Shown: in pieces, positions 25,101 to 58,100 of the stretch
How the letters are laid out: every line of letters begins with the position of its first letter
Numbering within the stretch: position 1 is the stretch's first letter
Source of the DNA: Candidatus Omnitrophota bacterium
GTDB taxonomy: Bacteria; Omnitrophota; Gorgyraeia; Zapsychrales; JANLHA01
DNA: 64,000 nt
Direction: 5' to 3'
NCBI GenBank assembly: GCA_020632535.1
Contig: JACKFJ010000002.1
Location: 120,245 to 184,244 of the forward strand
Notes under the pieces: model-generated
What the model was told of the DNA's origin: nothing
Database searches by the model: none
Seen by the model: only the letters and a program-made list of their open reading frames with translations
Position numbers and translations under genes: made by a program

Positions 25101-28100
25101 TTAATTTCACAAAAGACGCGTAAAATGATTGATCAAAGATTAACGGTGTTTGAAGACTGATTACGCCTAAATCTTTAAGGACAAAAAACTCAAATGCTTC
25201 ATTAAGACTACCGAATCCACCCGGCATATAAATCGCGGCCTGACTTAACTCAGCAAAAGCTACCAAACGACTTAAGAAATATTTAAATTGAAGCAATGTT
25301 GAAATGTATGGATTTGCTTCTTTTTCATGCGCAAATTGTTCTAAAATAATTTTTAACCCAATTGAAATACCGTTTGCCTCCACAGCTCCTTTATTCGCAG
25401 ATAACATCGTCCCCGGTCCACCACCCGTGATAACAGCATATGAATGTTGTGCTAACAATGCGGCGATACGCTCAGCTGCCGGAGATTCAACACGCGCAGA
25501 ACCAAAAATATTGACACCACCCTTACCCGTAAAAACATAGTTCTCCAAATGTAAAAGCAGTTCTTTAACCGCCAAAGCAACAAAATCAGGACTCATACCG
25601 ATACGCGGCAAAGTAACTTGCTGTATGTCAGAACTTGCTCTTTTGATCGGTAATGTAAGAATTTTTGCGCTTTTGCCAGTAGAAACATCAGACAAAATCC
25701 GCAATTGAACATCAAAACGGTATTGATCATCGCGATTGGATAAAGAATTTACCTTCAAATGCGTCATATATCTTCGAAGCAAATCTTCGTTTCCAGCTAC
25801 GAATTTAGCATCAAATCCTAAAATCAAAATATATTGACTTGGCAATCCTTCACGAGCTTGTTCTTGAAACTCAATCATTTTTAATGCGTCACCATTTATT
25901 CCTATATGCACCGGATCGTGCTTATATTTCTCAATAGTCAACATGTTCCCTTCCCAGCCAAGAAAGAAACGATGCATCAAATCTCTTTCATACCTCACAA
26001 ACCAAAATGGGCGTTGTAATTCAGACGCTTCAATCGAGAATTCTTCATCTGTTGTTCTTGATGCAAATGTCGCAAAAACAAAACCTTTTCCTTGTTCAAT
26101 TTGCCAGCCTTCATATCTTTTTAAATTGATAATTTGCCGCATCAAAGGTGAATAATGATAGGCAACAGATTTGATATCATCGCCATGTAATAAAGCATTA
26201 CCCAACTCTTTATGTAACCAGCGATAAATCAAATATCCAATACTGCCGACGAAAAGCAATATCCCAATCGCCCAAAGACCCATTGTCGCGTTAATCAGCA
26301 GGGTTGTTCCAGCTATTGCATTCATCGAGAGAAGAAGAACACCCAAACCGATAAGCAGTTGCATAAAATATTTTGCTTTACTTAATCGTGGGAATCCAGA
26401 CATGTCAACACCGGCAGCCTCAAAAACTTGTGCAAAAACCCCAATAAACCGCGGCGTTCTCAAACCATCAGTTAAATTTTTTGATCCTCGATCTAGTACC
26501 AGCTTAAGTCCATTAATTTCATCAATATTCTGACCTCCTAGAATCATCAAAGATAAAACACTCTCCGGACTTAAAACTTGGAAATCTTTGAGAAACTTCC
26601 AGTCAATCAATTGAACATCGATGAGAAGCCCTTGCGATGAAAACCTCACAAGAATATTATGCAAATTAATATGACCGTGTAAAAACCAATCGCCATCCTG
26701 ATACCGCAAAACATGCTCAATCCGATGAAGAATCATATCTTTTTCGTTTTGTGTCAGCTTTTTCTTCTGATTCTCGACAATATCACCCAAAACTTGATAC
26801 CCATAAACACGCAAATCTAACTCATAATAATGAGTGGTATCATTAATTGCGAAGAATGTGGGAACAGCTCCGAAAAGATCTTGATCAATTAACTTTTGAA
26901 TTGTGGCGATTGTGGTGCGGGGTCCAATGAGTTTTTGAATAATGCGCCATTTTTGCTTAGGATGTTCAAAAACAGCCTGCTTCCGATCAAAAGATAAACT
27001 ATTCAAATCCATATTCTTATCGTGCCTTAATCCAGTAATACCTTTGACGGCTAAGTATTCACGAATCGCGGCCATTTGCTGATTCGTCCAAGGTGCTGTC
27101 ATAACCGGCGAGCTGACTTTTTGTCCTTCGACAATACTCAAAGACGTGCGATCTTTCTTGTGAACAAAAACTTTCGAAGGAACATTAAACAATTTTGCTA
27201 ACACACCCCGATACATAGCGGCGGGTCGATAAGCGCCATTTTCCCACTGTTCAATTATTCTGGCTAATGATTCACTTAAAATACGCTTTTGCTGCTCGCT
27301 TATTTGGTCGAACAGTGGACCTTGAATTATGTTAATCATCTGTCGTGCCATTTCATTCGGAGTCAAACCACGACCCATTCTTAACAATCGAATCTTATCT
27401 TTAATCGTGCCTTCCTTTATCAAGTGTTCTTTGGTCATGCCAGCTAAAAGCACATAAGCATCCACTCCGAGGGCAGCTGCTAAACGTGGCCAAATTGCAC
27501 CAGAATCATCAACAGGCTCACCTTTGCTCAATTTTAATATTCGCTTGAATGTTACTCCGGAAATTTCGGCCAACTGTAGAAGACTTAAGCCAGCAATATC
27601 GCGCAACTCTTGCAAACGAACTGGAAGCAATCGCTCTCTTTCTTGCAAACGTCGAATTACTGCTTGTTCTTTAATACTTTCAATAAATTCCCATTTTACT
27701 TGTTCTCGTTTTTTACCCTTACGCAAATACATTGGTTCGACACCCATCATTATGCTCCAGTCACGCAAAGACGATACATAACTTTCATCAATCGGCTGTG
27801 TGACAACCTTACTCCACTTAGCAAGTTGATTAACAAGAACTACGTCGGATCTACCCAGTGGCTGACCGATTTGATCCCATGTTAACGAACCATAAATGAT
27901 ATTATAAAGATCTTTCAAATATCGAATTCTTTGCGCGGCAGCAGCCATTGTTTCTATACCTTCGAGACCTGATAATCTGATAAGAACATGAACAATCTTT
28001 TTTTGTTTTTTAACTTCAAATTGTCCAATAAAATTTACAAGTGACTGCGGATGAATCATCTGAGTTCTTAATGGCATTGTTCCGCTGATTGCCCATTGAT

Positions 28101-31100
28101 ATTGTGTCGTCCAACGACCATCAACCTGAACAATTGCCGCGTGACTTATCAGTGGAAATCCTAACATTTCAAGCCATGCCAAAACTCGATTCACCTTTTG
28201 CGGTGAATTGATTGTGCCCTTTTCCTGCAGCCTTACCAAAATCTCTGTAGCAGTGATAGGTTTGTTTACAAAATATTCCATGCTTAATAGAAGTTTATAT
28301 ATTTTAAAGCCATCTTCTAAAATAAATTCTGAAAGAAATTCATCATCGACAATTGAGTTCCCTTCCATCACCGATTCATAACCAAATTTAACGAATTCCG
28401 CTAAATCAACATTTCCTGCTCTAGTCAAAGGAGTCAAATTTGGCAAATCGCGCAAATTGTGATCTCCGATACCATTCCAATTAAAAGTTTCAAACACTGA
28501 CGAAGAGGCTAAAGCAACGTGGAATATTTCGTCTTCGGTAGCTTCTAATAATTCTGCTAATCGTTGACGTCGTTTCATCGGAACATTTTGTGTTCCTCTG
28601 ATCCAATTTCCAAATTGTGTCGCAGTCACACCAAGATCGGTCGCCATAACATCTTTAATTCTCCCAATGTTTAATCGCAACAGGTCGATCCGCTCACCAT
28701 CCGTTGCTTGACGATCTAAAGCAGCTTTTCTGCTTAATCCGTCTGTGAGAAGACTTATAACAGCATCTTTCCCTTTGTGTCCGCGAGCTCTGGCAATTAA
28801 CGCTAACACTTTAGGATCTTTAATATTTCTAACATCGTCTTGTTTTGCATGAACAGTTGGAAATGGCTCAACAAATGCAACTTGATTAGAAATCGATGTT
28901 TCAGAAACTTTTTGTTTAGCAAGCCACTCAACAAGAATTCTTGCCTTTAATTCGTTATTCCCTCTTGCAAAAACATAAGCCATCGCATCGATATATTTTG
29001 CCGACGGGACCAGAAGATCTTCGCTCCATTTGATAACAATCTTTCTGGAAACTTTAAGCGCAGGATCTAATGCTATGTTGTTATAAGTTAAGCCTTCAAC
29101 CGTTCGATACAAATCTAAACGCTGACCGAATGTGCGCATAGCCAAAGCTTCTGTCCGCGATAATCCGGTCAACAGAACATAAACATCCTGCTCAAGAATT
29201 TTTGCAAGTTTTTGCCATAACATCGTGTCTTCGATAAAATAAATCTTGTCCGCGGTCTCTAATCGATAAATAATATCTTCATCCACATCCACCATCTTTG
29301 CCAAATCTTGACGAGTTAAATTACGGCTTCGTCGGAAGAACGCGAGACGCTGACCACGGCTCTCTTCTTGCTCTTGAACCGACACTATTTTAACTGGCAA
29401 CTTCGCGATCTCGTCACCAGCCCATAGCATAAATGACCCAACCCCTAAAAATGTTCCAATCTCTTTAATGGTACTTTCTTCGGGGAAGCTCACACCCCTT
29501 AACCATGTAGCAACACGCTGATTGATTGTTCTGCGAATTGCTGGACTCATAGCATCACCTTTATATAATTTCTTTACTCGCCATATAATCCTGATTCTCT
29601 GAGCAACAGCCTTGGCGACTTGCTGTAAAAACAATGAATTCGTACGCATCTTTTCCCAGTTATAAATAATCTCTTGATTGACAAAAATCCTCCTCCAGCT
29701 CTTCTGCATTTCTACTGGCCACGTTTCAAATCCATCAATATCCCATTGCGACTTCTCTAAACTTGGAACAAACCATTGCCCGTTCTCACTTACAAGAGTC
29801 AATCCAGCTATTTGCAACCATTCCAACCCTGCCTGAAGAGTGACTTTTGAATAAATAACGCTTGTGCGATATGGCAATTTAATCGCCTCATGTATTAACG
29901 CAATCATCCGCAATTTGATTTTGTCATTAAGCCAATTGGGCTGATAATCTTCAATCATTTTGTAAAACATAAGTAAAAAGTCATTGAGACTATTTGGTCG
30001 AATATATGTCATTTTCTTAATCTCGCTTAAAAGATGACGGAAAAGATCGTCCTGCTTTTGTTCGGCAAGAAAGATAAGAATTTTAGCTTCGGCTAATTTG
30101 ATCGATTGCCCACCGACCCCATTAGCGATCAAGCGAGGAATTTCAATCATAATCTGTTGCGATGTCCAGCGGCTCTTGCTAACAGCTAATTCACGATAAA
30201 CATAAAGTAATTCAGTAATAAACTTTAATAAGTACATTTCTTCATCAAACAACTGACCATTCAAAGTCGATTGATAAGCTCTCATCGTACTTCTATATTC
30301 TTTTCTCGCCTTCGCGTATAAATAATCCTTCAAAGCAATAGGGTCTCGAAGTTCTAATAAATCCTCAGCAATCTTTGTCAGCCGACCATTACCCTGTAGC
30401 ACAATTTCATCAATCGCTGAAGATGCGCTAACAACATCATCCGATGACTCCGCGCTAAGAACAAACCACTGTTCATTTTCTCTCACGAGAGCAAATCCAG
30501 TTCTTCCCAACCAACCTAAACCTACTTCAAGCATCCCTTTTGAAGAAATAACACTCGTACGATATGGCATTTTGATCGCTTCATGTATCAAGGCAATCAT
30601 CTGAGATTTGATTTTGCTATTGAGCCAATTTGGCTGATAGTCTTCAATCATTCCAAAAAACATAAGTAAAAAGTCATTAAGACTATTAGGCCGAGAATAT
30701 GTTATTTTTTTAATCTCGTTTAGAAGATGACGAAAAAGATCTCGCTGTTCTTGTTCCGCAAGAAAGATGAGGATTTTAGCTTCAGCTAATTGAATCGACT
30801 GCCCGCCGGTTCCGTTGATAATTAAGCGAGGAATCTCAATCATAATCTGTTGGGACGTCCAGCGACTCTTGTTCTCAGATAATTCACGATAAATATTAAG
30901 TAATTCCGTAACAAATTTTAATAAAAACGTCTCTTCGTCGATTGGTTGGCCATTTAAAGCAGACCGATAAGCTTTCTTTGCATTTTTATAAACTTTAGCG
31001 GCTTCTCTATTTAAATAATCCTTTAAAGCAACTAAATCCCTAACATCTTCTGGTTCCAACGCGTCAATGATAGCCTGTGGATATGGTTTACGCATTGGCG

Positions 31101-34100
31101 CGGCACTGATCACCCAATGTCTAATCTGTGCTTTGCTAACGTTTCCGATCGCAGCAAGCTCTTCAAATGTAAATCCTTTTTCTTTGCGCAAAAGATTAAA
31201 CCGTTCATTTTGTGAGCTTGCTTCTAATGCGACTACTCTCGGTTGATTCGTCAATAATGTAATGACATTGGTATCACGTCCCCGAGCAATAAACGCCAAA
31301 ACTTTTATATATTGTAATAAATTTAAGTCATAATTATGTTCGGCCAGTGATGGAAACGGCTCAATGCTGCTTAACTCCCCAGAAGGCAAAAGAACTTCTT
31401 GTTTACTAAATAGATCCTTGTCAGATGCGCCCAACTTTTTCTTTAAGCGTTGAATCATTTCCGGTGATGGGAGATTCTGATCCGAAATCCACATCCCAAC
31501 AATAGAAGGAGACACGTCAATGGCTTTGGCTAATTGACCTCTTGTTAATCCGCCAATTAACCGCAACAAATCAAGACGTTGGCCAAAAGTCCTCCGCACA
31601 AGAGCCTGCTCCAATGGCAATCCGGTAAGAATTTCACTAACCGAACGATGAAGAACTTTAGCTATTTTTCCCCACATCCATGGATTATCTAAAAAGTGCT
31701 GTGCTGATCTTTTTTCTAAACGATACAGCTGCATTTCGCCTAGTTCAGGAATAAGCGCTTCAACTTGTGGTCTTGTAAACCCAAGCAATTTACGATAATA
31801 TTCAACTCTCTGACCAATACTTGTTAAATTCTCATTCTCCTTCTCAATTGCCGAAGAACCAACTGAATGCTTTTGTGTGAAAGGAATAATTTTTCCGGAA
31901 TGATTATTCTTTTCCCATGCAAAGAATTCATCTTCACTCATAAATAATAATGCCAGCTTCTTTGTTGCTGTACGTTCAAAAACTCCTTTAATATTCTGCA
32001 TATAGGCATGCTGATCAGCTAATTTCAAATTACGATTAACAAAATCCGCAACTTCACTGCTCAATACAACAACCAATGTCATAAGATCAGCATTAAATTC
32101 TAAAGAAACAAGCGGATCTCTGCGATGATTGATGCGCATAATAAAATGAACTTTGTGCCCATATCTATGTCTCGGATATTCAACATATAAAGAAACTTCA
32201 CCTTCCGTATACCACTGCAACTCAATAATTCTCTTGACCGAATTAGTAAACTTACTAATACTCCAATCCCCAACATCAAAAGCCGTAACCCTAATACTAT
32301 TATTCGCGTATACTATTGTTCTTTGCCGAGCATTACGTGACTTACTTTCATTTTGCCATTTTTGCGATAAATTATGAAGCGCTAACCGCGCGTTGGATAT
32401 AGGTATCCCCGGAGTAAAATCTACGACTTCATCTACTTTCAAACTGCGAAGCTGCAAAACTGCGACATGACTGTTGATAGACATTTTATGTTGCATTTCA
32501 ATATAAACTTTTCGCAATAACCGCGCGTAATCAGAATAAAGAGCAATACCAAATCTTTCAAAAGCTACAAATAAATTCTCAATTTCCGCCAACTTATCTG
32601 TTAATCGTTTAGACGTGCGTAAACGATATGGCTGTGCTAAATTCTCAAACGCTTCCTCCGAAAGCACACCGGCGCCATAAGCAAAGAGAGCATATTCCAA
32701 AATATGTGTAAGAACTTTTAAATAAACAACCGCGGCTCTAACATTTTGGTCAAACAATGGCGCGCGCGATAATAACAATGTATTAATATACAATTGATCA
32801 TCTAATTCATCGTAAACAACAAGATTTCTTCCTAACTGCGCAAATTTAAAAAGTTTTAAGTCGCTAACAGAATTGCCTTGTTTAAGATGCAAAGCTCTCA
32901 TCGCTCGGGTGAGGAATTCCATCTGCCCTTGTTCATTGCTCTTCTGATATTTACGACCAAATGGCATTACCAATTCCCCGGGGAAAAGAACACGCGTATA
33001 AAGCGCGGATGAGGCGACTTGCGACACCTGTTTAAGAATTTTACGAACATCATTCTCTGAAATATCTGTAGAAAATTCCAACATTAACACAACTTTGACA
33101 AATTTCTTGTGCTGATTAATCGACACGACCTTAATTTCTTTAATATTAATCCGAGAATCAAGCTCCCACAGAGAACGTAAAAGCGCGTTCAAAGATCCAA
33201 CTCGATTTGATATCTTAACTTCAAAATCCATCAAAAGATTATTACTAGTGGATTCACCCACGCGAACATCGGGAATACGTCCGATTGCTTCTATCACCGT
33301 TGCTAAAACAGTATGATCCAGATCACCATCGAGAAAGAATCGCACTTTAAAACCGTCTTCGTAACTTGCTTCAAAAGCATGAATATCTAATTGATTGGCA
33401 GATAAAATAGACGTAATCGGCATCAAGATGCCCGGTCGGTCATAGGAACCACTTACCGTCAAAACCCATTCCTGAACATCTACAAACGGAGCTGTCGCAT
33501 TTGCTTGACGACGGGTCCATTGCCTAGAAAATTTACTCCGTAAACCTGAAACACTCAACTTTTCATGAATAACTTTCGCTTCAACAAGGCCTCTCCCAAC
33601 AGCTTCAAAGAAAAGTTTTAAATTTCTGTTATATTTAAACGGCAACTCCGGAAAGATTCCTAAAATGGATTCGAGGCGTAAATCTTTGCTTCGATCTCCA
33701 ACCCAACTAATAACTTTTTGTTCAACCAAAAGCATGCGTCCAGCAAACTCCAATATTTCACCTAAATCCTCAAGATTGATAAGGCCCAAAGCAAAAGCCA
33801 GATAAAGTTCTTCTAAAGTCTCATCTGTTTTAAGCATCAAGGTATCGCTCCACTCCTTGAGAACTCTAATTTTTTGTCCATTACGGAATCGATCAGCAGC
33901 TAGCTCTAAAGCAGCTTTACCGCTATCGCTTTGTCTTTTTCTTTTTTCATTATCCCAAAACACAATACGAGCCATGAGCTTCGCTCGAAGCGTTGTCGAA
34001 TTATGCATAATCTTTGACCAATTGATTACACCGAACTTGCGTGGGAAGTAAAGCGTATTTCCTGTTTTTAAAAATTTATTATCCCCAAAACGTTGCAAAG

Positions 34101-37100: not shown

Positions 37101-40100
37101 CATAAACTTCTTTCATGGCAACACTATCCTCATATCTCATGACCCACGGCGAAGCATCCAATTTACCACCATGAATCAATTGCTTGGCTTCATTCACAAC
37201 GGCCGCGATAGCAAAACCTGCACGCGGCAAGGCATGTTCTTTAATCGGGCTAGAACTTTGATTCTGACTCATATCATCATCCTGACCCATTTGTTTTTGT
37301 ACCGCTTCAATTGTGTTATTTAACTGCCACTTTGTCTCAACTTGTTGCGGCGAAACTAATGAATAAAAACCACTCCCATTCCATCGTTTTTGCTTATATG
37401 TGCTTTGTAAAATATGATTCAATACCGGTCGCGCGTCGCGACCATTAGAACCCATAAGTCCAATCACCTTAACAAGCCGTTCTTGCGCCTGATAGGAATG
37501 TTCATTCTGTAATTCAGCAATAATAAGAGATAAAGCAATCGAGCCGTTGAGAGCAAGAGCACGGCTTAACCAAGCGCGTTCAATTTCGGAAGATTCCGCA
37601 CGAAGGAAGAATGCTAACACTGCTTTTTGTACATCCTCATTACCTGATGCTAAAACTTTAGAAACATTGCGCAAGAGATCTTCTTGCCACAAAATATCTT
37701 GTGTTTCTTTTAATGTGTTAACTGAATAATTAGTATCTTGAATCTCGCTCCTAATTGAATCTATTTCCTTCATGAATTGAATTTGTTCTCTGACTTCAAT
37801 AATTCTGCTGTAATGTTGTAAAGTTTTTAGCAAAAATTCTGTCTGGTTCTGTAGCGCAACACTCTCTAGAGATTTAGCCCCTAATATACTCGCGATAATT
37901 GCAAAAAGTTCTTGTCCCGGATGCAAGTAAGATTCACTAACACTTGTAGACGCGACAGTGTCAATACTCAGATTCTTATTTGCGGCAAAAATGCCAGTAG
38001 CGTTTGGTTTTATTTCTGGCGCAGGTTGTGGATGAGGCTGTTGATCAAACTGTGGCTTAGGCTGCTTTGGTTGTGGAACAGGTTGATTCTCCAGCTTTTC
38101 GAGTTCATTTTCAAAATGCTTAATCCAGAGAGGAAGATCTTTCTTAATTTGAGGATATTTCACGGCAAGTCCTACACTATTTAAAATAGTACCCAAAACA
38201 CGCAATGTTTCAATAACTATAATCTGGAGCCTTTGATTTTGTTCCTGAGTTTCAAATTGAAGCTGCGCGCTAAAATAATCATAAAAGAACTGCTCAAGCG
38301 CGAAAACTATGTCTGCCATCAAATGCGCGTCACTTCTCACGGCTTCACTATGAATGAAAATAACGCCACGCGGCTGACCAAGAAATCCATCTGAAACATA
38401 CAATGAATGATTCAACACCGAAGGATGCTCAAGCGGCAAATTAAATAATAGTCGCAAGTTATTGCGTATAGCAACTTGAAATCTTGAACTCAACACAATC
38501 TCACGTTCAACAGGGTTAAGATTTACAACGATAATTTGAAATAATTTGACAAGTCTTCTTGGATCAACAACAACTGTTTTATTTTCATCGATCGTGGAAT
38601 CTTTCGCGGCAAAACCAATAATAGCACCAAGAAAATCTCGTCGCGTAATCGCGCTGGAAGCGACAGGATATTGTGCAATAGCAGAATTCGCGTCAATTGT
38701 AATTTTGCTGACTTCAACCTGACCCGAGACAAATACCTGATAACGCAAAGGCTCTGTCTTTGTTGCATCGCGCCAAAAGACAAGAACCCGATCTCCGTCG
38801 ACTTGAATATTAATTTTATTGGACAAAGTAACAGCACTAGGTTCATCCCAACGATGATTTCTTAAAACCGCAGCCGGCCTAATAAGGCGCACCGTACTAT
38901 CCACTTTATTAATTTCAAATTCGGCGGACCACAATCCATCTTCTTCCCAAATACGAATATCAAACGCTCCATGCCGCAACCAATCAAATTGTGTAAACAA
39001 ACCACTTTGCTGGTCATTCTTGTATCTGGAATCGATGCTATATACTGCATTTGGAGCAATATATTTATAAACCATCCGCATCAAACCATAATTTCTTGTA
39101 TTGTGTATTTCAACCATCGAAAATGAATTTTGCCGTGCAAAATTAACTAAATATGCAAATATCGTACGACCCATGCCCTGTAAATTATAACTATAAGAAG
39201 TCGCACTAAAAGCAATATAAAGTACGTCAATTTGATCTTCTACAAGACTCAACACCAGATTGCTGTCTGTAATCACGTTCCCATTAAGCCAGAGGCCAAA
39301 ACTTACTTCCTGTGAATCATCCTTTTTATAAACAGCATCCAGATTCTGTTTAAGAGTAAATGGCTGGCCATTAACAATGTTAACCAATTTAATTTTTTGC
39401 GGTAGAATGTCTTCGTGCCAATTTCGCTGAATCGGAGATGAAGCACGAGTCTTACCTTGTTTGTCTTCAACCACCTTAATCATGATACGTTCAAAATTTG
39501 AACGAATTAATCCACGAGCCGCAATTTTATTAGCATTAATATCACCCTCGTAAGAAATATACGAAACACCGACTCTCTCAGCTAACCCCTTGAGTAACCA
39601 TTGCGCTACGACCAACCGACCCGTCGACTTCCAAGTTTCACCCCCCAATAGACGCTCAACCCGGCCTAAAATCATTTCATGAGATGGAAAAGCCGTAGCA
39701 TAATTTACTGCCTGCCCCCAGATTGAAATTCCACTGCCAAAAAGCATATAAAAATTTGTATTAGTTTCTCCCTCATGATTAAACCAGACGTCAAAGGTGC
39801 GAACGCCATAAACTCCAAATTCATTTAATTTTTCGCTTAAAAATTGACCCTCAGAAGTCTGTTCAAGATTAAGTTCAACTGAACTCATTAAAGGATTCTT
39901 TGTAATTACAAAAATATCGATATCTTCGCCATAAGGCATTTGCGTCTCAGCTGGATAACTTGACCAAAATTCAACTAAACTGCCACCAATCGTGATATTT
40001 TGAATTTCAATATCTTGGAAATGCCGCTGCAAAATAATTGGTAAATATTCTTGTAAAATGATAAGAACGTGTAGCAAATGATTTCTTTTAATCTCATGAA

Positions 40101-43100
40101 CTGACTGCCAAACATAATGACCAGTTTTTAAATGTCTTACCAAATCTTCAGAAGATAAAATTTTCTCATCTGATAATTGTGCTGTCATCAAATTTATGGC
40201 TTGATAAATATCTGGCACCATTATCATTTTTGCTTCTTCAAAAGTAATAGAAAAACCCTTACCCGCAGCCGCGCTGGAAGCGACAGGATATTGTGAAATC
40301 GCTGTCGGCACATAAATCACGATTTCCTGAACATTATCCTCCGAAAGATAAACCTGATAATTAAGGGGCTTTTTACCACGAGGATTACGCCAATCCACAA
40401 GAAGAACGTCACCCTTAATCTGAATAATAATGCGTTTTAAAAGACGATCCGCAATCGAATTTGTCTCCCAACGATTATTGGCGTAGATTGCACTCGGCCG
40501 AGCAAGCACCACCTGATTATCTTCTTTATTAATATAAAAATTACCAGACCATACTCCATGCACGTCGTCAATAATACGAACATCAAGAATTCCTTGTCGC
40601 AACCAATCCTTCTCGGCAAATAAATATTGACGAACTTGGGATTTACGCTGCCTTACATGATATTTAGCATCCGGAGCAATATGCTTATAAACCATATGCA
40701 TCAATCCATAATTTTTTGTATTGTATATCGAAAGGTGTAAAACTCCGTGCTGACGGGCAAAATCAACAAGATAGGCAAGTATGGTACGACCCATGCCTTG
40801 CAAGTTATGCTGATAGGATACTCTTCCAAGATAAATCTCCGTCACGGCAATGAGCTCTGGCTTAAGCTGTATGACCAAGAGGCTTCCCATAATCTCTTTC
40901 CCATTTACGACAATACGATAATGGACCTCCTGTAAATTTTCCCGACTAAATAAATCAAATTGCTTCAGTGTAAATAGCTTTTGATTTGCGACATTGGTCA
41001 GAACAATTTCGTGTGGCAAAATAGATTCATGCCAGCTTCTTGGAACTAGTGCGGAAGAGGCAGTTATGATTGAAGATGAGCTTCTCGCCAAGTTGGCAAT
41101 CGCAGGAAGAATAATATAATGCCCACCTTTGCCCATATCGCCTAATATCAAAGCCTTCTCTGTAAAATACCCGTCAGAATAACTTTTGACTCTGGTCGCG
41201 CCTGTAGCATTTTTTACAACACGATAAAGATGAATATCACTTTCTGATCCCACCGCATAATAAACACCCACTAATTTAAGATAGACATTTAATCCTTGTT
41301 GGCCAAATACCAAAAGATCTCTCTTTGCTACTTCCGCCTTAACCGCTTGATATCGCTGCGCATCCTGCCACTGGCCAATATTAAAGACCATCAAGTCATG
41401 CCACTTTAATTTCATGAGAAAAACGCGAGCCTGAGCGTGAGTAATATTAAATATCTCGGACAATTGTGTGATGCTATAAAATGGAATAACTTTTGCGGTT
41501 GTCTTGCCGGCTGTCTGCGCAACTTTTGAAATCCTGTTAAAATGTGCGAACGGTTCTTGAATATAAAAGCGCCCATCTCGTCTTAATTCTGTTATCTTTT
41601 TAACTAAGCGTTCACGAGAAGCAAGCGGAAGCTCAACCATCAGTTGACCCAAACGCAATTCAGTGGCAATAGCCGCTAAATATGGTTCGGCAACCTGTTC
41701 AACCATAACATGAAGATCATTGTCAAGAATTGTGCGCATCCATTCACGAAATTCATAAAATTCTTGAACTAAAACCGCAAATTCTTCAATTTGATTCGCC
41801 GCGAGCAATTCGAGCACCTGCTTGCCATAAATAATTCTTTGCTCAAGATCAATTAATTTGTCTTCAACATAAGCCAACAAATGCTGCACTTGTTGCTGCG
41901 TCATAGCATCGGTCAACGCGCTGGAAGCAGTCTTTCTTCCCATCAAACTATGTAATTCGCGAGGAAGCAATTTACCAAACGCGGCATCTCCGGGAAGAAC
42001 AATTTTCACACTCGGCAAGAAAGGTTGTTGTCTACCTTGAAAGATTGCGGTAATCTTTAAAATTTCTTCAACCGTTGGCGTTTGAATAACTTCAATCTTG
42101 TAACTTTCGCCTATATCATTACGAAACTCAAATGGCATGAAGCCTCTTCTAAACGGCATACGGCTTTCAACATACTTTTGCAATGGTAAATACTGAGGCG
42201 CTGTTACTTCACCGCGTCCGCCACTATTTTCCACATTGACAGCTTCGCGAATCGCCTGAACAAAAATCTGCAAAGCCTGTTGATCAGCATACAATTGACG
42301 CGTGACATTATCTTCTAATTCAATTTCAATCGAAGCAAATATGCCAACAATGTCCCTTTCACTAAGTCCGCTTATAACAGCGCCATATGTTAATGCATAA
42401 GCAATTTCCATTTGTGTTGCAACAAACAAATAATTTGATTGTTCCGATGCTTTAGGATCAAAATCAATCACATGCTTGCCATCAAACAAGCCAGCAAAGC
42501 GAGCATTAGTGTGCCCCATAAAATTATTCAAATCTCTAACCGGACTATAATCATCGGTCAAATCTGATAATTTTGCCTGAAAGACACGATTATCCCATCC
42601 GCTATTCGCATGCATCAAAAGCGTAATTGCAGAATGAATTTTATTTTGTGCCAAAAGGCCGTAGTACTGAGTCTGTATGAGAAGCAATGCCGACTTATAT
42701 TTGCGAACCATTTCATCTTGGCTCATCATTCCCTGCAAATTATCAGTCAGATAAGCGAAGACTTCGATATCTGTTTCATATCTGACCTCGCCGGTCTGTT
42801 CATTAGCCTGCACATTGGTTATGCGCCCAAAAGAATACTTTGCAATGGCTTTGATTCCTGAATATTCGGCATCAAATCCGTCACGGCCCGTAATTCCCCT
42901 GCTAGATCGATCAAAATATTTACTAATAACAAATCGTGGACGATACGTCGCATCCGCATTGGTTGGCTTAGGTAATAAATGAACAAACTTATACGTTCCA
43001 AATTGAAAATCCATAGATTGTAGGAACAAATCAATTCCATTTTGTAACGACGATTCAGTAAAGAATTGATTCACGAAAGCGTCAATCAATCTTTTCGCGT

Positions 43101-49100: not shown

Positions 49101-52100
49101 ATAAATTGTGAGTAATGATAACGGTACCGGTCTCACCTAAGAACAAATTAAATTGTCCATCATGGCGATAAAGTTTTTCCATATAAACAGGTCCAAAACC
49201 GGTTTGCCAATCATTAAAGTGCAAGATGTCAACCTTAATCCCTAAAGCAACCGCAATATAAAATGGTGCCTTTGCTAATAAAATGGCTTCAATATATCCA
49301 TAAAGACTGTCGGTATATCGGCTACGAACAACTTGCGAGTACCGATTCGCATCAAGATCTTTTTCCGCCGGATACAATGATGGTTGAAGCAATGTCTGTA
49401 AAATCTTATCGGTCGGATAAAAGCGTAAATATCGAACACCGTTGACATCATTTTGTGTCACATTCATTGTCAACTGACCACTTCCCATCGGAACGGTAAT
49501 CGACGTTAGGACAATCCCTTGTGGCATCACAGGTTTTACGACCGGTGAATATTCAGCCTGATAACCCGGATTAATGACAAAGACCATATATCCAGCTTTT
49601 TCGAGAGCTTCAGCATATTCACGAATATAATCACCTTGACCACCCTTCATCGAAACACCCTCAGCAGCGACTAAAAACACAACTTTCTTACCGGCCGCCC
49701 GAACAGCGACAACCTGATTTTGTATATCCTCAATCAAAATCTTTGACTGTTCATCATGGCCTAATTGACGAACATAAACATGACCATTACCATATGGCAG
49801 TTCTGCCCAAACTTGACGATTTCCAAATCCTTCAAAAGCCACTGTAAATTCAAAATCATCACGAGCTTCAACACGAATCGCATAAACCGCGCGACCATTT
49901 TCAGTGTTTCTAACCCAGTTCATCGGTTCATCTCGCCATTGACCTGTACGATTCGAACGCAAAATCACATGACGTTGTTCACCCATACCACGCGCGGCTT
50001 TATCATCAGTCGCGTAAGCGACTCCCTCAATATTAACCTGTTGACCTGCAGCAACGTGATGAACGCGTTCGGCCAAAAACCCACCATTTTGAACCATTTT
50101 CTTGAAATTAAATTCCGAATAAGATTCTTCCTGAATGCGGATATTAGCCAAAGCCCAATCTTGAGCATGCTGACCCGTCGAACTCATACTTTCAACATGT
50201 CTAATATTTACAGTGCTATCAAAAATATTTTTGGATAAATTAAATCGATGATCCCATTCATCCACAGCGCACATACCGGCAACACTAACACTATTATTCA
50301 AAACAAATTGTTTAATCGCTTCTAAATCCCAATCTTGAACTTTCTGCGCGACTGGTTTATGCACAAATCGACTTTGATAATGAATTGTTTGAACGCGAAC
50401 ATTTAAGTCATTTAAAACATCCATCATTTCATTTAATATTTCAGCAAATGTCCGCACCTGCATCGCGTTGCGATAAACGTAGGCACCCACCAACGTACCG
50501 TCAGCCATAAACCCGCGCAACGCGAGAAATTCACTATCATTGTTATTTGCACTCATTCGTAACATATATACGTCCGCCTGAGTTTGTTCTACCATAACGA
50601 TCACCCATCCCGCTTTAATGACAAAACTATTAGCTGGATATTGAGCTTGCATGGAGTAGTTGTTATCCCAAACATATTGTTTTGTGAAAGCATCCTTGTA
50701 ATAATCCGGACGGGCAGATTGAACTGCAGGGATATACGTATACTTCTCTTCTGAATCAATTACACGATAAGAAGCGATTTGACCAATTTCGAGTTCATCT
50801 AAAGCCGTCATGGTTTCAAACCATTGATTGACCTGAAGAACATAGTTTAAGGATGCGTTCGGAAGACGGCTGACAAGACGGCTATGAACAGCGGCGCTTT
50901 GTCCAACATGAAGAAGATGATCGATTTCGTCGGTAATAATTAATTTGAGGGATTCATAAAGGTGCGGTAAATATGCTGCGCTTTCTTGTTCTTCAATGAA
51001 TTCTGGTGGCGCGCGTAAAGCACGATACGAAAGGTAAATCTCGCCATGACGAACATAAGCGATTTCGCCAGCGTCACCGTGTAAAATCAACTTGATAATT
51101 TTGTGAGTCGATTCGCCAAACCAGACCAATTTATCATTTTGTGTTTGCTGAACAAAAGCATAATTGATAGCATCCGCAAATTCTTTCGCAGGAAAATCTT
51201 TCAAATCAGCCGGCAACTTACCCAACTTACTCATGGTCACTTTACCAGTGCTCGGATAAATGCGAACCTTAACATTTAGTTCAACACGCGGCAATCCACG
51301 AAGCGCGGCAACATAAAGCGGGAAGCCATCTTGATTAATCGCGCTGGAGGCGGCATTGCTATGACCAGAACCAACAGACTTAATTTGTGTAGCGTAATTA
51401 TCTAATTGCTTACGGAAAGAATCCACATCCATCGCATTAACGCCGATCGCAGCAATGACATTTGCAGAATGTTGTAGAACTTCTTTAACCGTTCCTTCAA
51501 AAATACCGCCGGCAACAATAATCGGCAATTGGGCATTAGCTTGTCTGACCGCTGTGAGGAAGTTTTCTGCAGCATCCGCAGAACTTTTCTTTAATTGACC
51601 AAACGGCTTAAATAACACGACATCGACGTCTTTGGCCACAGTATTGGCAACTTCACTTTGAACCATTGTCATATCAAGCGGCAAGTTCAACGTCAATTCA
51701 GAGATAATCACGACATTCGCATTATTGCGGCGAATATTAGCAACGATTTCTTTAGTCCAGTTAGAACCGATAAGAATGTTAGCACCTTTGCGATTAGCTT
51801 CTAAGGCGCTGACTTCATCATTGACGAAGAACGCGACGATTGCCGTTGCATAATTTACATCTTGACGTAATGATTCCAAAACATCCATACGATCTAACGA
51901 AGGAATAATTTGACGATCAAGAAGTTCTTTTGCAAAATTCACAAGAAGCGTGGAATCAAGTGCCGCATAACCTTTACCGCCGGTAGTTGTGTGTAACCCA
52001 GCTTCAGCGCGGAAAGATTGTAATACTTCAATCACCTGTTGACGATTATAAACACTAGAAGATACACGATTCTTGACTTGCTCGACACGCTGATCATTTT

Positions 52101-55100
52101 CCAAAGCCCATTTGACAGTTTCAAGTTCATCACCATTGTTGACCGCAGAGCTGGCAGATGTCGAATTTTTGGTTTGAATATATAACGGTTCATAGCTGCC
52201 ACGTTTTAGAAGCACCGACGTTTCATGCACTTGTTCCACATCGCCCCACATATCATGATCTTGTGTGCTATAAACAACAACATTAACTGTCTCAACGATA
52301 CGATCAACTCTGATCATGTCCGGTGTATATGAACCTTGTTGCAAGTTTTGAACATAAGCAATCTCACGCTGCATAATCGCGCCAATTTCATACTTAGAAA
52401 CAGACTGTAAAGCTTTTTGAAGTTCTTCAGCGCGGATCAAATGAATACCTTTTTCCTCTAAGATTTTACGATATTCGACGGCGTATGGTCGAAAGACCGA
52501 TTCAGTCGTTTCGTAATATAATGGGTCTTTGCTCGCCATCTCACGTTCACGTGCTGCATCTCTCCTCGCACGGATGTACATGATAAATCCAGCAACCACA
52601 CCAATAGCAACAAGCACAATTAAAACCATTTGACCGATTGTTAAATAAGCCGCGATAGCGGTGATTGCAGAAGATGATTTGATATCGGTCAAATTCTTAA
52701 CTTTGCTATCCGTACTTGCGCTAGAAGAATTTTCTTCACCCTTCTTATTTAAGGCTTTGATCTTTTCTTCTTCCTTTTTGATCTTTTCTGCGGCAACCCA
52801 CTGATTAATTTGTTCCATTTCCTTTTCTGCAGATTTTGAATCTTTTCCAAATGCGGCAAAGAAGAGAAGGCCGGCAATAAGTACAGGAGATAAAATACTC
52901 AAAAAGATCAACACTGAAACATTTAAAATCGTCGCTAAAAATACTGCTGGCAAAATCCATGCGGCAATAATACCGCCTGTTACAGCCAAAGTGTATTTCG
53001 TATTCTTAACATAACCATTTTCATTTGGACGATTAACACGAGTCTTAGCACCCAAATAAGCGATCTTAATAAAGATGCGGCTGCCCCAAACGCGTTCTTC
53101 AACCAATGTGCTATACAAGAAATCACGGAACCCTGTCAATGTCCATTTATTCACAGTCAAAACATTAGTAGCCCCGCTAGTAACCAAGGCAAAAATTGCA
53201 ACGACCATCAAAACGAAATTGATCAACTGCACTAAAGGATTGTTCCAATTGACAATACCAGTCACCACCATAAAGATGATTGAAGCAAAGAAGACTAAAA
53301 GACCTTTCCACCAACCAAACATAGCAAACAAATCCATACCCTTTAAGTGACGACGGGATTCGCCATTTATCGTCCCTGCTTTAATGCCAAACAGACGAGC
53401 GAGACCATCAAGCTTAAAGAATGCTAACCAACCATTAAATTTCGAAACAAACGTATTATATGCAAATGTACCCGTCAAGAATGACGTTGACGCAAGCATA
53501 TAGACTAAGGTAATTGCTGGACCAAACGGTGTCGTACTTAATAAAGCAAAGAACCAGCCGAGTTGACCAAGCATACCGACAAAGCCGTCGAATGGAAATG
53601 CTTTCTTAAACTTTGACAACATGATAAAGCCGAAGAGCATCACAATCGGAGCAATAATTAATAATGCTGTCGAAATCCAAAGCGAAGCAAATATATGCAA
53701 AATAACAGCGAATATTTCTAAGCCCACCCCAATTCCAAAAACAACTTTACCTGCATTCTCAGTACGATTAACATTCAAACTCAACACCTTGGTATTTTCA
53801 TAACGGGTCTCAACACTCCATTTACTTAAGTTTGGCTCTTTGGCGGTACGAATAAAGCTAAAACTTTCATTCGATGCATAAAAGACACCCTTAACGAAAC
53901 TGGCAATAAGATTGACATAGAATGGGAAGCCGGCCATCGTTTCAATCAGAGCCATCCAAATCGCCTTCAAGAAGCTACCCGTCAATCGTAATTGACGTAA
54001 GAAGTTATGCAAATTGATCGCTTGCATCAAGAATGTACTGACGCCGGCGAATAAGAGAATCGGCGTTAAAAACGCGAAAGAACTAAATGTCGCGCCAACC
54101 GGCAAGAAGATCAAGAGTAAGACAGCATTAATCGCAGTAAAGTAATGAGCAAAGAACCCTAAGTGAGCAAGCTTCACATCGTAACCAATATCTTTATTAG
54201 TGAAGACTTCAAATTGCCCACGATCCATCATAAAGCGAGTAACGTTAAAAGCGTAACGGGTTTCAGTAGCGTACAAGGATTCAGCCAAGAGTGAAGGACG
54301 GCCCCATTCAAACGTAAGCCAATCTACCTGTGTCGAAAGAACATTCGGATAAGAACGCTGCATAACTAAGAACGCGCCAGAGTCTTCACCCGGAGGTGTT
54401 AATAATGTATCGCCAGCCGCCGGTGTGATCAAAGCCTTACCGTAGAACGTTGTCATACCACGACGTGCTCTTTGAACATCAGACGTAAACGTTTCTTGAG
54501 AAACTTTGTATAAACGGGTAACAGGGAAAGCCCAATTGCTAGATGCCCAAATGCGCATGTTCGGGTTAACAACAACAATTTCCGGATTGCGGCCAACTAA
54601 AGAAGCCCATGATGTTGTATAAATGTTTTGCCCCGGATACACACGCACATGTGCGTCTAAGTTCATGCTACGTCCGTATGTTGCCCAGAGATTGATAACA
54701 ATATTACTGTTCTTCACACCCAAAACTGGATTATCTTTCGAGCGATCGTAGAACGGTAAGTAGATATCGTTCTTGATCGTTTCACGAATAACATATGTCA
54801 CGTGCATGGCTTGTTGCCAAGCGGCGATCCAAGCCGTCGGAAGCGTGCCAGTATTACGAGTACGAATGAAATCAACAATATTTTCACGACGGAACTGATC
54901 AAAAGTATCCGCAAGCGTAACCAAATCTTTAGCGCTAATCGTTTTTCCTTCACCACTCCAGAGTCCTTGTTCTTTTAAGAACGCAAGAAGGTTGGCAACT
55001 AAAGGAACTTGTGATTCGGCAAAGAAACCGGCAAATGGTCCTTCTTCTAATTTATATTGTCCATCATTTGTTTTACCCATCAATTGACCCCAGAGTAAAC

Positions 55101-58100
55101 CTTCACTGAATATGCCACGAACTTTTTCATTGGCTAATGCGCGATACATTTCATATCCTTGCATAAAGACTTCGCGAACGGCGACATCACGAACTTGTAC
55201 GGCACCTTCCGCATAAGCAGCGGTCAATGTCCGATACTTAGCTAAAACGTCATTTAATGCTCTAGCGTATTCGAAATCCGCATTTTCGTTAGCAAGATAA
55301 ATATGCATTTCATTGATGTTCTTAGCTTGACTACGGGCAACAGAAATGTTAGCCGGACGAACTTCATTCATCAATTCTTCAAGAGCCGTGATGACCATCA
55401 TAATTTCTTCCTGTGACAACCCTTGCTCAAATAAACGAATCAATTTTTGATTCATATTAGAAAATTCATCAGAGCCCTTGAATTCCTTGATAATCAATTG
55501 CAATTTGTCAGCGGATATTCTGCCGGCCAAAAGATTGATTTGATTATTGAATTCTTCCTTAAAACTACGAATCAAATAACCCAAGAGCGTGGTGTTGCTG
55601 ATATGACGCAAATCTTCACGATTCTTAATCAAATAATCTCTATCGCTTTTATTTAAATCCTTTATACCTGCGACAATTTCAACAACATCCAAATCTGTTT
55701 GTTTAGTTCCTTCGATAGATTGATAAGCAGCGGCAACGCGAGCAGCAGCAATAATGAATGCTTTTTCTTCAAGGCTTAAATTGACAGCCTTATTTACTAA
55801 AGCATTAAGATCTTCAACGCGGACTATCGATTCCACAATGGTAGTAATATCAGCTTGCTTCTTCTTATACTCAGCCAAAGTAATTCTCATGTTTTTCTTA
55901 TTACGAGCCAAAATCATACCCATCACAAGATTGATGAGTTTAAACTTATCTGGAATATCAAATGAACCGGATTGCATATCATTTTCAAAAATATGCGCGA
56001 AAAGTTCACCGTATGCGGCAACGTGACTGGATGTCGGCTGTAAATGTTCCACAACATCGGTGGCCGGTTTCATCTGGCTTAATGAGAAGAATTGCTGATA
56101 AAAGACTTCATAACCTTTTTCGGTATCAGGAAGCATAAACGTAAAGGCATTCGGATTAAGAATGACTTTGACATTCGCATCATAAACTTGCTTGCTGATA
56201 CGGCCTTCTTCTTTTTCGATTAAAAGCATGCGTAAGAAATAGTTCTCGATGGTTTCACCATTAGGCGTGATCGCGCCATAGCGGGCTTCGATTTCGAGAA
56301 ATTCTTGATACCATTTCGTATAGAATGCGCCATTCTTAATACCATTCATATCTCTATTTAATGCCTTCAATAACCAGATCGAACGGGCCGTTTTGCTCCA
56401 TGTCGTAGTATTCAAAAGCAAGTAACTCTTCACAACAGTAAATATATGCATAAAAGTAATTAAGGTCGGAACAAACATAAGCACGAATAATCCAGCTGTG
56501 ATCGCAAACCCTAATGTGCCAAAATGGATAACAGCAAATTTCCAGAAGACAAAATGGGTAATCCAACCTAAGTACAATGTTGTTGCAGTAAATGTTGCAA
56601 CCCATAACCATTTTTCAGATGAGAAACGAACCTTACCAGCCAAAAGCGTAGGTAATCCAGCCAAGAACATCATAAAGATATACCCTAAAGCCGCATAACG
56701 GGTAGCAACAATAATATATCCGCCGCCCAAAATACCAACCAAAGCTAAAGCGATCACTAACATACGCAAAGCTTTTGAATGAATGGCCCAGAAGTTTTCC
56801 AAGCTTCTAAATTTGCCCGGAATCTTCATGACAAAGCGAGCAATCAAAGCACCGAAGAACATCGGACCCAAGATACGGATACCAAACAGATGAATAATGC
56901 CGCGCTTATTATTTGTCATTTCATCTGCTTTAGCTGCATATGGAGACTTTTCTGCGCTTAACTTCATCGTTTCTTGTTTAAGCAAGCTTGTAAACGGGAT
57001 CACTGTTTTTCTAGCGTGATCCAAAATGTCAGAATATCCCAACTTTGTTTTTAAGAAAGCACCGTACAGCTCTTTATGCTTGGCAAGAATTTCTTCTAAA
57101 CGAACTGTAATCGCTTCGAATTTCTTTTCATTGGAAGCTTTATTGTCGGCACCAAATTCATGATCAAACATCGCAGTAATGACACCATTAAATTGAACCA
57201 AACCTTGCTCACCCTTGTTTGCCAAACGGTCAAAAAGATCATGCACGTCAGTATCAACAAGGATCTCATACAAATGAAATTCAGCTTGGGCTTGTTCGAG
57301 CGGCGGCTGTGTAACTAATTTCCATAAACCAGCACCAAAATGAAGCGGCGCATACCAATTATTCAAATGGAATAAAGCCTTCCAAAAACGAGCATAAGTG
57401 TGAATATGCTCCATAACAAAAGCGGCGTCCTTACCTATAGAAAGATTTTTAGCCGCTTCGCGAACAATAAACAGCGTTAATGGATAGTTGAATGTTGTCC
57501 CACCCAATGAATATTCATTGGTTTCGCTCGGAGGAGATTGTAACAATTTCACAAAGATATGTTCAAAAACCGTTGTTGCTTCAACATTCGGAGTTGTCGG
57601 ATACGGATTATACTTTGCGGTTAAAACTTCGCCAGCTTTAGCGATGCGAGACGGATACAAGGTGAAGAATCTCTTTAATTCGCCAACAACGCTAACAAAG
57701 AGCTCATTGATAAATGCAGCATTTTTAATTGTGCTCTTTGAATAAGCATTAAATGTCTTATTAAGAACCTCATCAAAAAGTGTTCTGGCGATGCGAGTCT
57801 TAACACTTTCGACAAAGAGTCTCATGCTCGCTCTTTGGCCGTGACGTGCAACATACGCCTGAGCTTGACCAGCAAACACAGCATCGGTTTCATCACCAAA
57901 GTATTGTGTATCAATTAAATGCGCCAAAACACGGACAGCTGGTGTTGGCAAGAGCGTGTTTAAATCTTCGCGGATATCTTGACCTGCCGCCAATGCCTGA
58001 AGCGTACGATTTTCGACTTCGATAACAAGTGCTTTCAATAACTGTGCCCAACGCAAACTGTCATTATTAATATTGATCTGCAAACGACCATTAATACTTT

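Follow-up and report, generated by a model that had tools for sequence, protein, structure and literature searches.

A duplicated GNAT-like module and a recurrent delimiter peptide in a giant multi-enzyme protein of Candidatus Omnitrophota

Do the giant proteins of Omnitrophota act as one chain, or are they cut into pieces? A 64,000-nucleotide stretch of Candidatus Omnitrophota DNA (contig JACKFJ010000002.1, referred to here as the window) raises this question in a concrete form. One minus-strand open reading frame (ORF) at 10156-63954 encodes 17,932 amino acids (aa) and contains the entire repetitive region 38662-41928, which the original prediction described as a duplication of paired nucleotidyltransferase-like (NTase-like) and GNAT-like modules with near-identical junctions. 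The analysis presented here retains the duplication for the GNAT-like half alone and traces the junctions to a short peptide that separates modules along much of the giant protein. As a description, a duplicated module and a delimiter peptide marking module boundaries, this result is close to certain; what the peptide is for can be answered more tentatively. Window coordinates given below for the giant ORF and its parts are on the minus strand.

The frame of the giant ORF has no internal stops, against more than 1,000 in each of the other two minus-strand frames. The adjoining MutS (5571-8129) has the same sequence as MCB9771488.1, which comes from a metagenome-assembled genome of Candidatus Omnitrophota, and the ORF can therefore be placed among the giant genes known from this phylum. 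Giant multi-enzyme ORFs have already been reported in Omnitrophota, where ~65% repeat a Pfam domain by old duplication (bioRxiv 10.64898/2026.06.07.730766). The ORF resembles the class of ‘multi-enzyme metabolic cluster’ proteins in its phylum, its length of more than 10,000 aa, its many transmembrane segments (seen as hydrophobicity peaks) and its mix of starch synthase/GT1, GNAT, methyltransferase-type and regulatory domains, and also in repeating domains by old duplication and divergence and not by recent tandem expansion. At least 10 distinct Pfam families are present, including starch synthase and GT1, RelA_SpoT, ACT, several HTH_3/HTH_31, LOG, TPR, AceK and alpha/beta hydrolase. It differs from the proteins stressed in the papers on this class in having no SecA, C39 or dockerin domains and in being almost free of cysteine.

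The relatedness of the two GNAT-like modules was upheld by alignment. Copy A (aa 7636-7891, 40282-41049) and copy B (aa 8175-8431, 38662-39432), each of ~260 aa and each bearing the QGMGRTI.AYLV.FAR motif noted originally, align end to end together with their terminal delimiters (aa 7636-7895, 40270-41049, against aa 8175-8435, 38650-39432). Identity is 48% in protein (E 7e-77) and 59% in DNA (489/834, codon-aligned), low enough for an assembly artefact to be dismissed as the origin of the repeat; the ~75% nucleotide identity first reported is reached only locally, with 77-83% in the best stretches of 30-69 nt. Similarly, the proposed period of ~1,620 bp is borne out by five direct-repeat families spaced 1620-1623 nt, all of which lie within the GNAT-like modules, in the segments 38650-39188 and 40270-40808. 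Chunked self-BLAST of the giant protein returned the A/B pair plus a few other internal duplications. Copies A and B are sisters in 100/100 neighbour-joining bootstraps, with 47.5% identity to each other against at most 28% between either copy and any other family member. The substitution rates are 0.47 per nonsynonymous site (dN) and 1.14 per synonymous site (dS), with a dN/dS of 0.41; the duplication is old and arose within the gene or lineage, and both copies have been retained under purifying selection. The nearly invariant family residues G85, G87, Y114 and Y130 are kept by both.

The NTase-like half of the supposed pair is not duplicated. A single module of 279 aa (aa 7896-8170, 39445-40269) lies between copies A and B, and chunked self-BLAST found no partner for it in the giant protein. 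The module before copy A (aa 7347-7631, 41062-41916), which has no assigned function and no Pfam or NCBIfam match, did not align to the middle module by BLASTP even at E<=100 when taken up to its delimiter (aa 7347-7635), and the other NTase-like module (aa 6366-6615) matched it at E=4.1 only. Copies A and B now flank one unrelated module, and on sequence comparison the two non-GNAT modules are unrelated to each other. The middle module looks weakly NTase-like: it carries an hG[GS]...DxD-like pattern, IGGS...EDIDIF, with an unusually long gap of 19 residues between GS and DxD, and scores 12.5 bits against Pfam Polbeta (cut-off 26.9, E 0.17), with no PDB sequence match and no NCBIfam match.

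The supposed pairs had also been likened to toxin/antitoxin and nucleotide-modifying systems. For a functional pair of this kind, only the adjacency of a weakly NTase-like module and GNAT-like modules speaks in favour. The GNAT toxins known so far have RHH antitoxins as partners, and the partner of MNT is HEPN; no match to an RHH or HEPN partner was reported in the general scans run here. The modules are in-frame parts of one ORF, the similarity to NTases stays under threshold, and the PADLOC defence models gave no match for the region’s four modules. Promoter-like and terminator-like sites occur in the region at chance level only, on which ground internal transcription units were dismissed. 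A functional pair of this kind is therefore very improbable.

What, then, is the duplicated module? When 1.84 billion representative proteins were searched exhaustively with a profile, only 26 relatives emerged (E 5e-23 to 5e-4). Every relative or locus with a named source belongs to Candidatus Omnitrophota (MEW6101856.1 and the loci L001 and L002), MFH1846301.1 being named ‘Candidatus ...’ only. Scanning genome contigs with the two-copy alignment gave no match and missed even this genome; with the family alignment, two Omnitrophota loci were found in genome contigs and one locus in metagenomes, numbers too small for statistics. The depth of the alignment was also decisive for structure prediction by AlphaFold2. 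With the two paralogues only, the predicted local distance difference test score (pLDDT) was 45, whereas the 29-sequence alignment yielded a pLDDT of 91.9 and a predicted template-modelling score of 0.89. The latter model has a GNAT-fold core (beta4-alpha3-beta5-alpha4) followed by a beta-rich C-terminal half, with strands replacing the usual N-terminal helices. In Foldseek comparisons with the PDB, the first half of the model matched GCN5/PCAF and bacterial GNATs with a probability of 1.0 over 89-121 residues, at a root-mean-square deviation (rmsd) of ~3-6 A.

For the full 260-aa module, tandem-GNAT proteins of the clavulanic acid pathway (PDB 2wpx/2wpw) lead the Foldseek list, which also includes VipF, an effector of Legionella (6wqb/7wx5). 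The likeness resides in the GNAT core, including the beta4-alpha3 loop; identity is only 8-12%, and the overall rmsd is ~17 A, with ~90-120 residues fitting well. The tandem-GNAT proteins differ further in the N-terminal helices, which are strands here, and no Pfam or NCBIfam model covers the family of the duplicated module. Profile matches are faint. Pfam Acetyltransf_1 scores 15.4 bits for copy A, below its cut-off of 20.7 (E 0.023), no Pfam GNAT match exists for copy B, and the family profile reaches GNATs in the PDB at E 0.06-0.6 only. As a candidate for the acetyl-CoA pyrophosphate-binding loop (Q/R-x-x-G-x-G/A), both copies have NLQGMGRT and the family has T-x-QGIG, with G85 and G87 nearly invariant but with N or T in place of Q or R at the first position. 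Going by the predicted fold, the duplicated module is a divergent GNAT-fold unit and a putative acetyltransferase, and its relatives would form a module family newly defined here. Several free-standing or shorter relatives start with a segment that, read by eye, resembles a signal peptide.

The junction itself provides the link between the two copies and the rest of the protein. A shared 24-nt sequence, CAATATCCTGTCGCTTCCAGCGCG, occurs exactly twice in the window, at 38650-38673 and 40270-40293, where shuffled sequence is expected to contain none. It codes for QYPVASSA, that is, the C-terminal tail QYPV of the module followed by the tetrapeptide ASSA. The last 12 nt of the two junctions correspond to the ASSA delimiters after copy A (aa 7892-7895, 40270-40281) and after copy B (aa 8432-8435, 38650-38661). 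On the other side, copy A is directly preceded by ASSA (aa 7632-7635, 41050-41061) and copy B by the variant ASSP (aa 8171-8174, 39433-39444), and a further ASSA (aa 7343-7346, 41917-41928) marks the upper limit of the region as first delineated. Similarity between the copies starts two residues past the ASSA (A) or ASSP (B) and breaks off right at the following ASSA, with unrelated sequence on the far side. The duplicated unit is thus exactly one cassette from delimiter to delimiter.

This peptide is not confined to the duplicated region. ASSA is the most over-represented tetrapeptide of the giant protein, with 13 occurrences against 0.41 expected, a 32-fold excess, and no more than 3 in any of 500 shuffles. 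The wider motif [AGS]SS[AGSPDT][ILVMA] has 29 sites between aa 3760 and 17661 (10974-52677) and none in the first 3,759 aa. None of the 29 lies inside a Pfam-matched stretch, and the segments between them are mostly protein-sized, ~170-1,170 aa. Recurrent defined sites between modules, a feature looked for in a polyprotein, are accordingly present: all 29 delimiters fall between domains. ASS[A/S/G/P] followed by I/L/V is a peptide-level delimiter between modules over the last 14,000 residues, and the giant protein is a string of ~29 protein-sized modules.

One of these modules is a complete AceK, the isocitrate dehydrogenase kinase/phosphatase (16012-17793, aa 15388-15981), contained in a single delimiter-bounded segment. 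Its regulatory and kinase domains match Pfam at E 1e-59 and 6e-70, and the AceK stretch aa 15402-15976 is flanked by SSSSA at 15383 and ASSS at 15982. A 651-aa query with this module aligned over 90% of its length to free-standing AceK proteins of 570-620 aa, its closest relatives at 32-34% identity. That search returned free-standing AceK proteins only and no giant orthologue; word-indexed homologue searches with the GNAT-NTase-GNAT region or the glycogen-synthase region gave no matches at all.

Is the conserved junction a feature of the DNA or of the peptide? The original prediction saw hints of recombination-mediated, cassette-like shuffling of modules, and the 24-nt junction could be read as a DNA-level recombination or cassette-insertion site, with modules shuffled between junction repeats. 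An exact identity of 24 nt (26 nt) that ends modules otherwise 59% identical fits such a site, as do the third delimiter carrying the same 12 nt (GCT TCC AGC GCG at aa 7343, 7892 and 8432) and the regional clustering of delimiter serine codon classes. However, the codons of the delimiter are highly variable across the 29 sites, with no conserved DNA motif, and the 24-nt pattern occurs just twice in 64 kb. A run of 8 identical codons anywhere in the A/B alignment is only mildly unusual (permutation P=0.03), given the conserved peptide and 57% codon identity at conserved residues, so the exact 24-mer is mostly explained by the conserved peptide. A dS of ~1.1 also shows that no recent exchange took place. 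Because the delimiter codons vary, it is the peptide that is constrained, not the DNA or RNA; an RNA- or DNA-level motif at the junction was dismissed on the same ground and for want of any Rfam match in the ORF. A recombination site in the DNA is consequently improbable, and what survives of the cassette idea holds at the protein level: the modules act as cassettes whose similarity is bounded by delimiters.

The codons nevertheless retain a historical signal. The second serine of the delimiter is encoded by AGY at 9/16 sites before aa 10000 and at 0/13 after it (Fisher P=0.0012), against background AGY use of 0.40 before and 0.35 after this position. Since AGY and TCN are not one synonymous change apart, the clustering suggests that the delimiters of one region have a common origin and were duplicated together with their modules.

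A scenario can be outlined from these observations. A ~260-aa GNAT-fold module was duplicated within the gene long ago and both copies were kept; the gene would grow by duplication and insertion of delimiter-bounded cassettes, the junction codons travelling with the cassette. A tandem pair elsewhere in the gene may be a further example of such growth. This second in-gene duplication is younger (29734-31047) and comprises aa 10970-11176 and aa 11201-11407, 58-84% identical, with a dN/dS of 0.15-0.22 and an ASSA delimiter (aa 11177) where the two meet; the terminal ASSA has been lost in the second copy. The delimiter would be read by another protein, for which a protease that severs the giant precursor into individual enzymes is the most likely candidate.

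The GNAT-like module family also occurs in other proteins, between other delimiters. The Omnitrophota fragment P0007 is 6,043 aa long and has its GNAT-like module (aa 2246-2473) between CSSPA at 2237 and VSSPF at 2474. This fragment has 17 [AGSTC]SP[ILVFA] sites, and in its second half the xSP sites stand between Glucosamine_iso, HD, methyltransferase and alpha/beta hydrolase domains. A third delimiter occurs in P0012, P0015, P0018, P0020, P0026 and P0030, which form one family with putative signal peptides (loci L002 7391-13042 and L004 10001-21463, both on the plus strand). These proteins are 1,100-3,800 aa long and share their N- and C-terminal domains, and L002 shows that they are from Omnitrophota. 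Their modules are split by DGG, usually [QK]-x-DGG, and the trimer is 7-13-fold enriched, between Pfam domains, in four of the six members (P0012, P0015, P0026 and P0030). In P0012, DGG individually flanks GNAT, Methyltransf_28 and UPF0489, and the GNAT-like module family shares the interval between the last two DGG sites with DUF7790. The GNAT-like module family is therefore bounded by one of three fixed delimiters, and which of them it is varies with the host protein. DGG is reminiscent of the double-glycine sites cut by C39 peptidases.

These comparisons bear directly on the function of the delimiter, for which two explanations can be weighed. The delimiter may be a protease-processing site and the giant protein a polyprotein, to which we give somewhat less than an even chance. 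A protease is favoured as the partner because the motif is fixed with a hydrophobic residue at +1, varies between hosts while the module stays, and frames whole enzymes. It is favoured also because cleavage of giant proteins was argued for by West-Roberts et al. (2023) with no cleavage points known and hence no candidate sites (bioRxiv 10.1101/2023.11.21.568195). Extending this idea, ASSA+[I/L/V], xSP+hydrophobic and DGG might all be processing sites, and giant ORFs true bacterial polyproteins that release dozens of complete enzymes; this broader proposal is plausible but unlikely.

The other explanation is that ASSA+[I/L/V] is a preferred flexible hinge in a permanently intact, membrane-tethered scaffold, in which case the duplication would be an ordinary domain duplication and the identity of the junctions would reflect conservation of a linker peptide. 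The ASSA tail has a pLDDT below 50 in the AlphaFold2 model, as expected of a linker, and the 28 Kyte-Doolittle hydrophobicity peaks of the giant protein suggest anchoring helices, so that the protein is probably membrane-anchored. Passive linkers, however, usually vary in length and composition, whereas here a fixed motif of 4-5 residues with a hydrophobic +1 position is 32-fold enriched and kept despite synonymous turnover. Different fixed delimiters around the same module in different proteins also fit recognition by a partner better than flexibility. A passive hinge is thus a substantial possibility, although we consider it rather doubtful.

Several points weigh against processing or against the cassette reading as a whole, some of which speak for the hinge. 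Cleavage itself is putative. No peptidase family is detected in the giant ORF at Pfam E<=0.01, and no protease is found among the other ORFs of the window or beside P0020, which leaves a divergent or distantly encoded protease possible. A short Ser/Ala motif could simply be a preferred hinge. A 2026 preprint sees in this class an inner-membrane-anchored cytoplasmic scaffold, reports that domains are as a rule repeated, and makes no appeal to cleavage (bioRxiv 10.64898/2026.06.07.730766). The GNAT assignment comes from a predicted fold, with hidden Markov model scores under threshold, and no orthologous giant gene was found with which individual ASSA sites could be compared across species. Taken as a whole, the reading of duplicated, delimiter-bounded cassettes whose delimiter is probably a processing site comes near to an even chance without reaching it.

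Comparison with known systems helps to separate what is ordinary here from what is new. MARTX toxins of Vibrio and relatives are very large proteins in which unrelated enzyme modules lie between short defined sites and are released by proteolysis; they contain regions of glycine-rich repeats, and the cysteine protease domain embedded in them cleaves after Leu. The giant ORF also strings unrelated enzyme modules between short defined sites, but its delimiter is ASSA+[I/L/V], neither the glycine-rich repeats nor the cysteine protease domain was found in it, and both cleavage and delivery into another cell are putative. Polyvalent proteins of phages and conjugative elements likewise join many unrelated catalytic domains in one polypeptide, and proteolytic release has been proposed for them; they have 2-15 domains, reside on mobile elements and usually contain a recognisable peptidase domain (Iyer et al. 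2017, PMC5512222). The giant ORF shares the many unrelated catalytic domains, whereas it is chromosomal, beside mutS/mutL, with ~29 modules, a repeated delimiter and no detected peptidase. By analogy, MARTX toxins and polyvalent proteins may be its closest functional counterparts. The duplication on its own is an ordinary case of the pattern already reported for Omnitrophota giant proteins. New are the fixed delimiter peptide and the module family of predicted GNAT fold, for which neither Pfam nor NCBIfam offers a model. West-Roberts 2023 and the 2026 preprint say nothing of a fixed peptide between modules, and the terms ‘linker’, ‘motif’ and ‘cleav’ do not occur in the text of the preprint.

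Other features of the giant protein and its surroundings merit description in their own right. The first 3,759 residues (52678-63954) have neither a Pfam match nor a delimiter and hold 11 of the 28 hydrophobic peaks; this part may serve in anchoring or translocation. Segments containing an XRE-type HTH are repeated, with at least three copies that are 26-34% identical (aa 10655-11017, 11485-11880 and 12005-12203; 27346-31992). The module after copy B begins with ITRRDFLGAIIGFAAKD (aa 8436-8452, 38599-38649), which, judged by eye, resembles a twin-arginine (Tat) signal, with T-R-R-x-F-L followed by a hydrophobic stretch; no Tat model from Pfam or NCBIfam matches it at E<=1, and such a stretch could function solely at a free N-terminus. 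Cysteine is nearly absent: the 17,932 residues include two (0.011%; codons at 50269-50271 and 20887-20889), against ~1% in the adjacent MutS and MutL, while the related fragment P0007 has an ordinary share of 0.93%. This near absence could reflect export of the protein or its exposure beyond the cytoplasm; West-Roberts 2023 makes no mention of cysteine.

Outside the giant gene, an AdoCbl (cobalamin) riboswitch at 1259-1398 on the minus strand (51.5 bits against a gathering score of 50) is the sole Rfam match of the window. The mutS neighbourhood recurs at P0020 in a related genome, on a contig of 1.87 Mb that encodes a MutS with 58% identity to the MutS of the window. The gene of this multi-module protein also adjoins mutS/mutL (L004 5410-21463), in divergent orientation, against the convergent arrangement of the window (5571-63954).

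For the biology of Omnitrophota, the value of these junctions lies in making the question of cleavage testable. Giant proteins could not be split for analysis because their cleavage points were unknown (West-Roberts et al. 2023, bioRxiv 10.1101/2023.11.21.568195), and the delimiters now supply specific candidates for these boundaries, with 29 in this gene and counterparts in further proteins. They can be used for splitting giant ORFs before structure prediction, in searches of metaproteomes for peptides whose first or last residue lies at a delimiter, and in the hunt for a matching protease. If the polyprotein proposal is true, low cysteine content and the putative signal peptides of free-standing relatives would also hint at export of the products or at their delivery into another cell. 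The giant ORF would then in effect be an operon within a single protein, and the duplicated GNAT cassette an illustration of how polyproteins of this kind expand.

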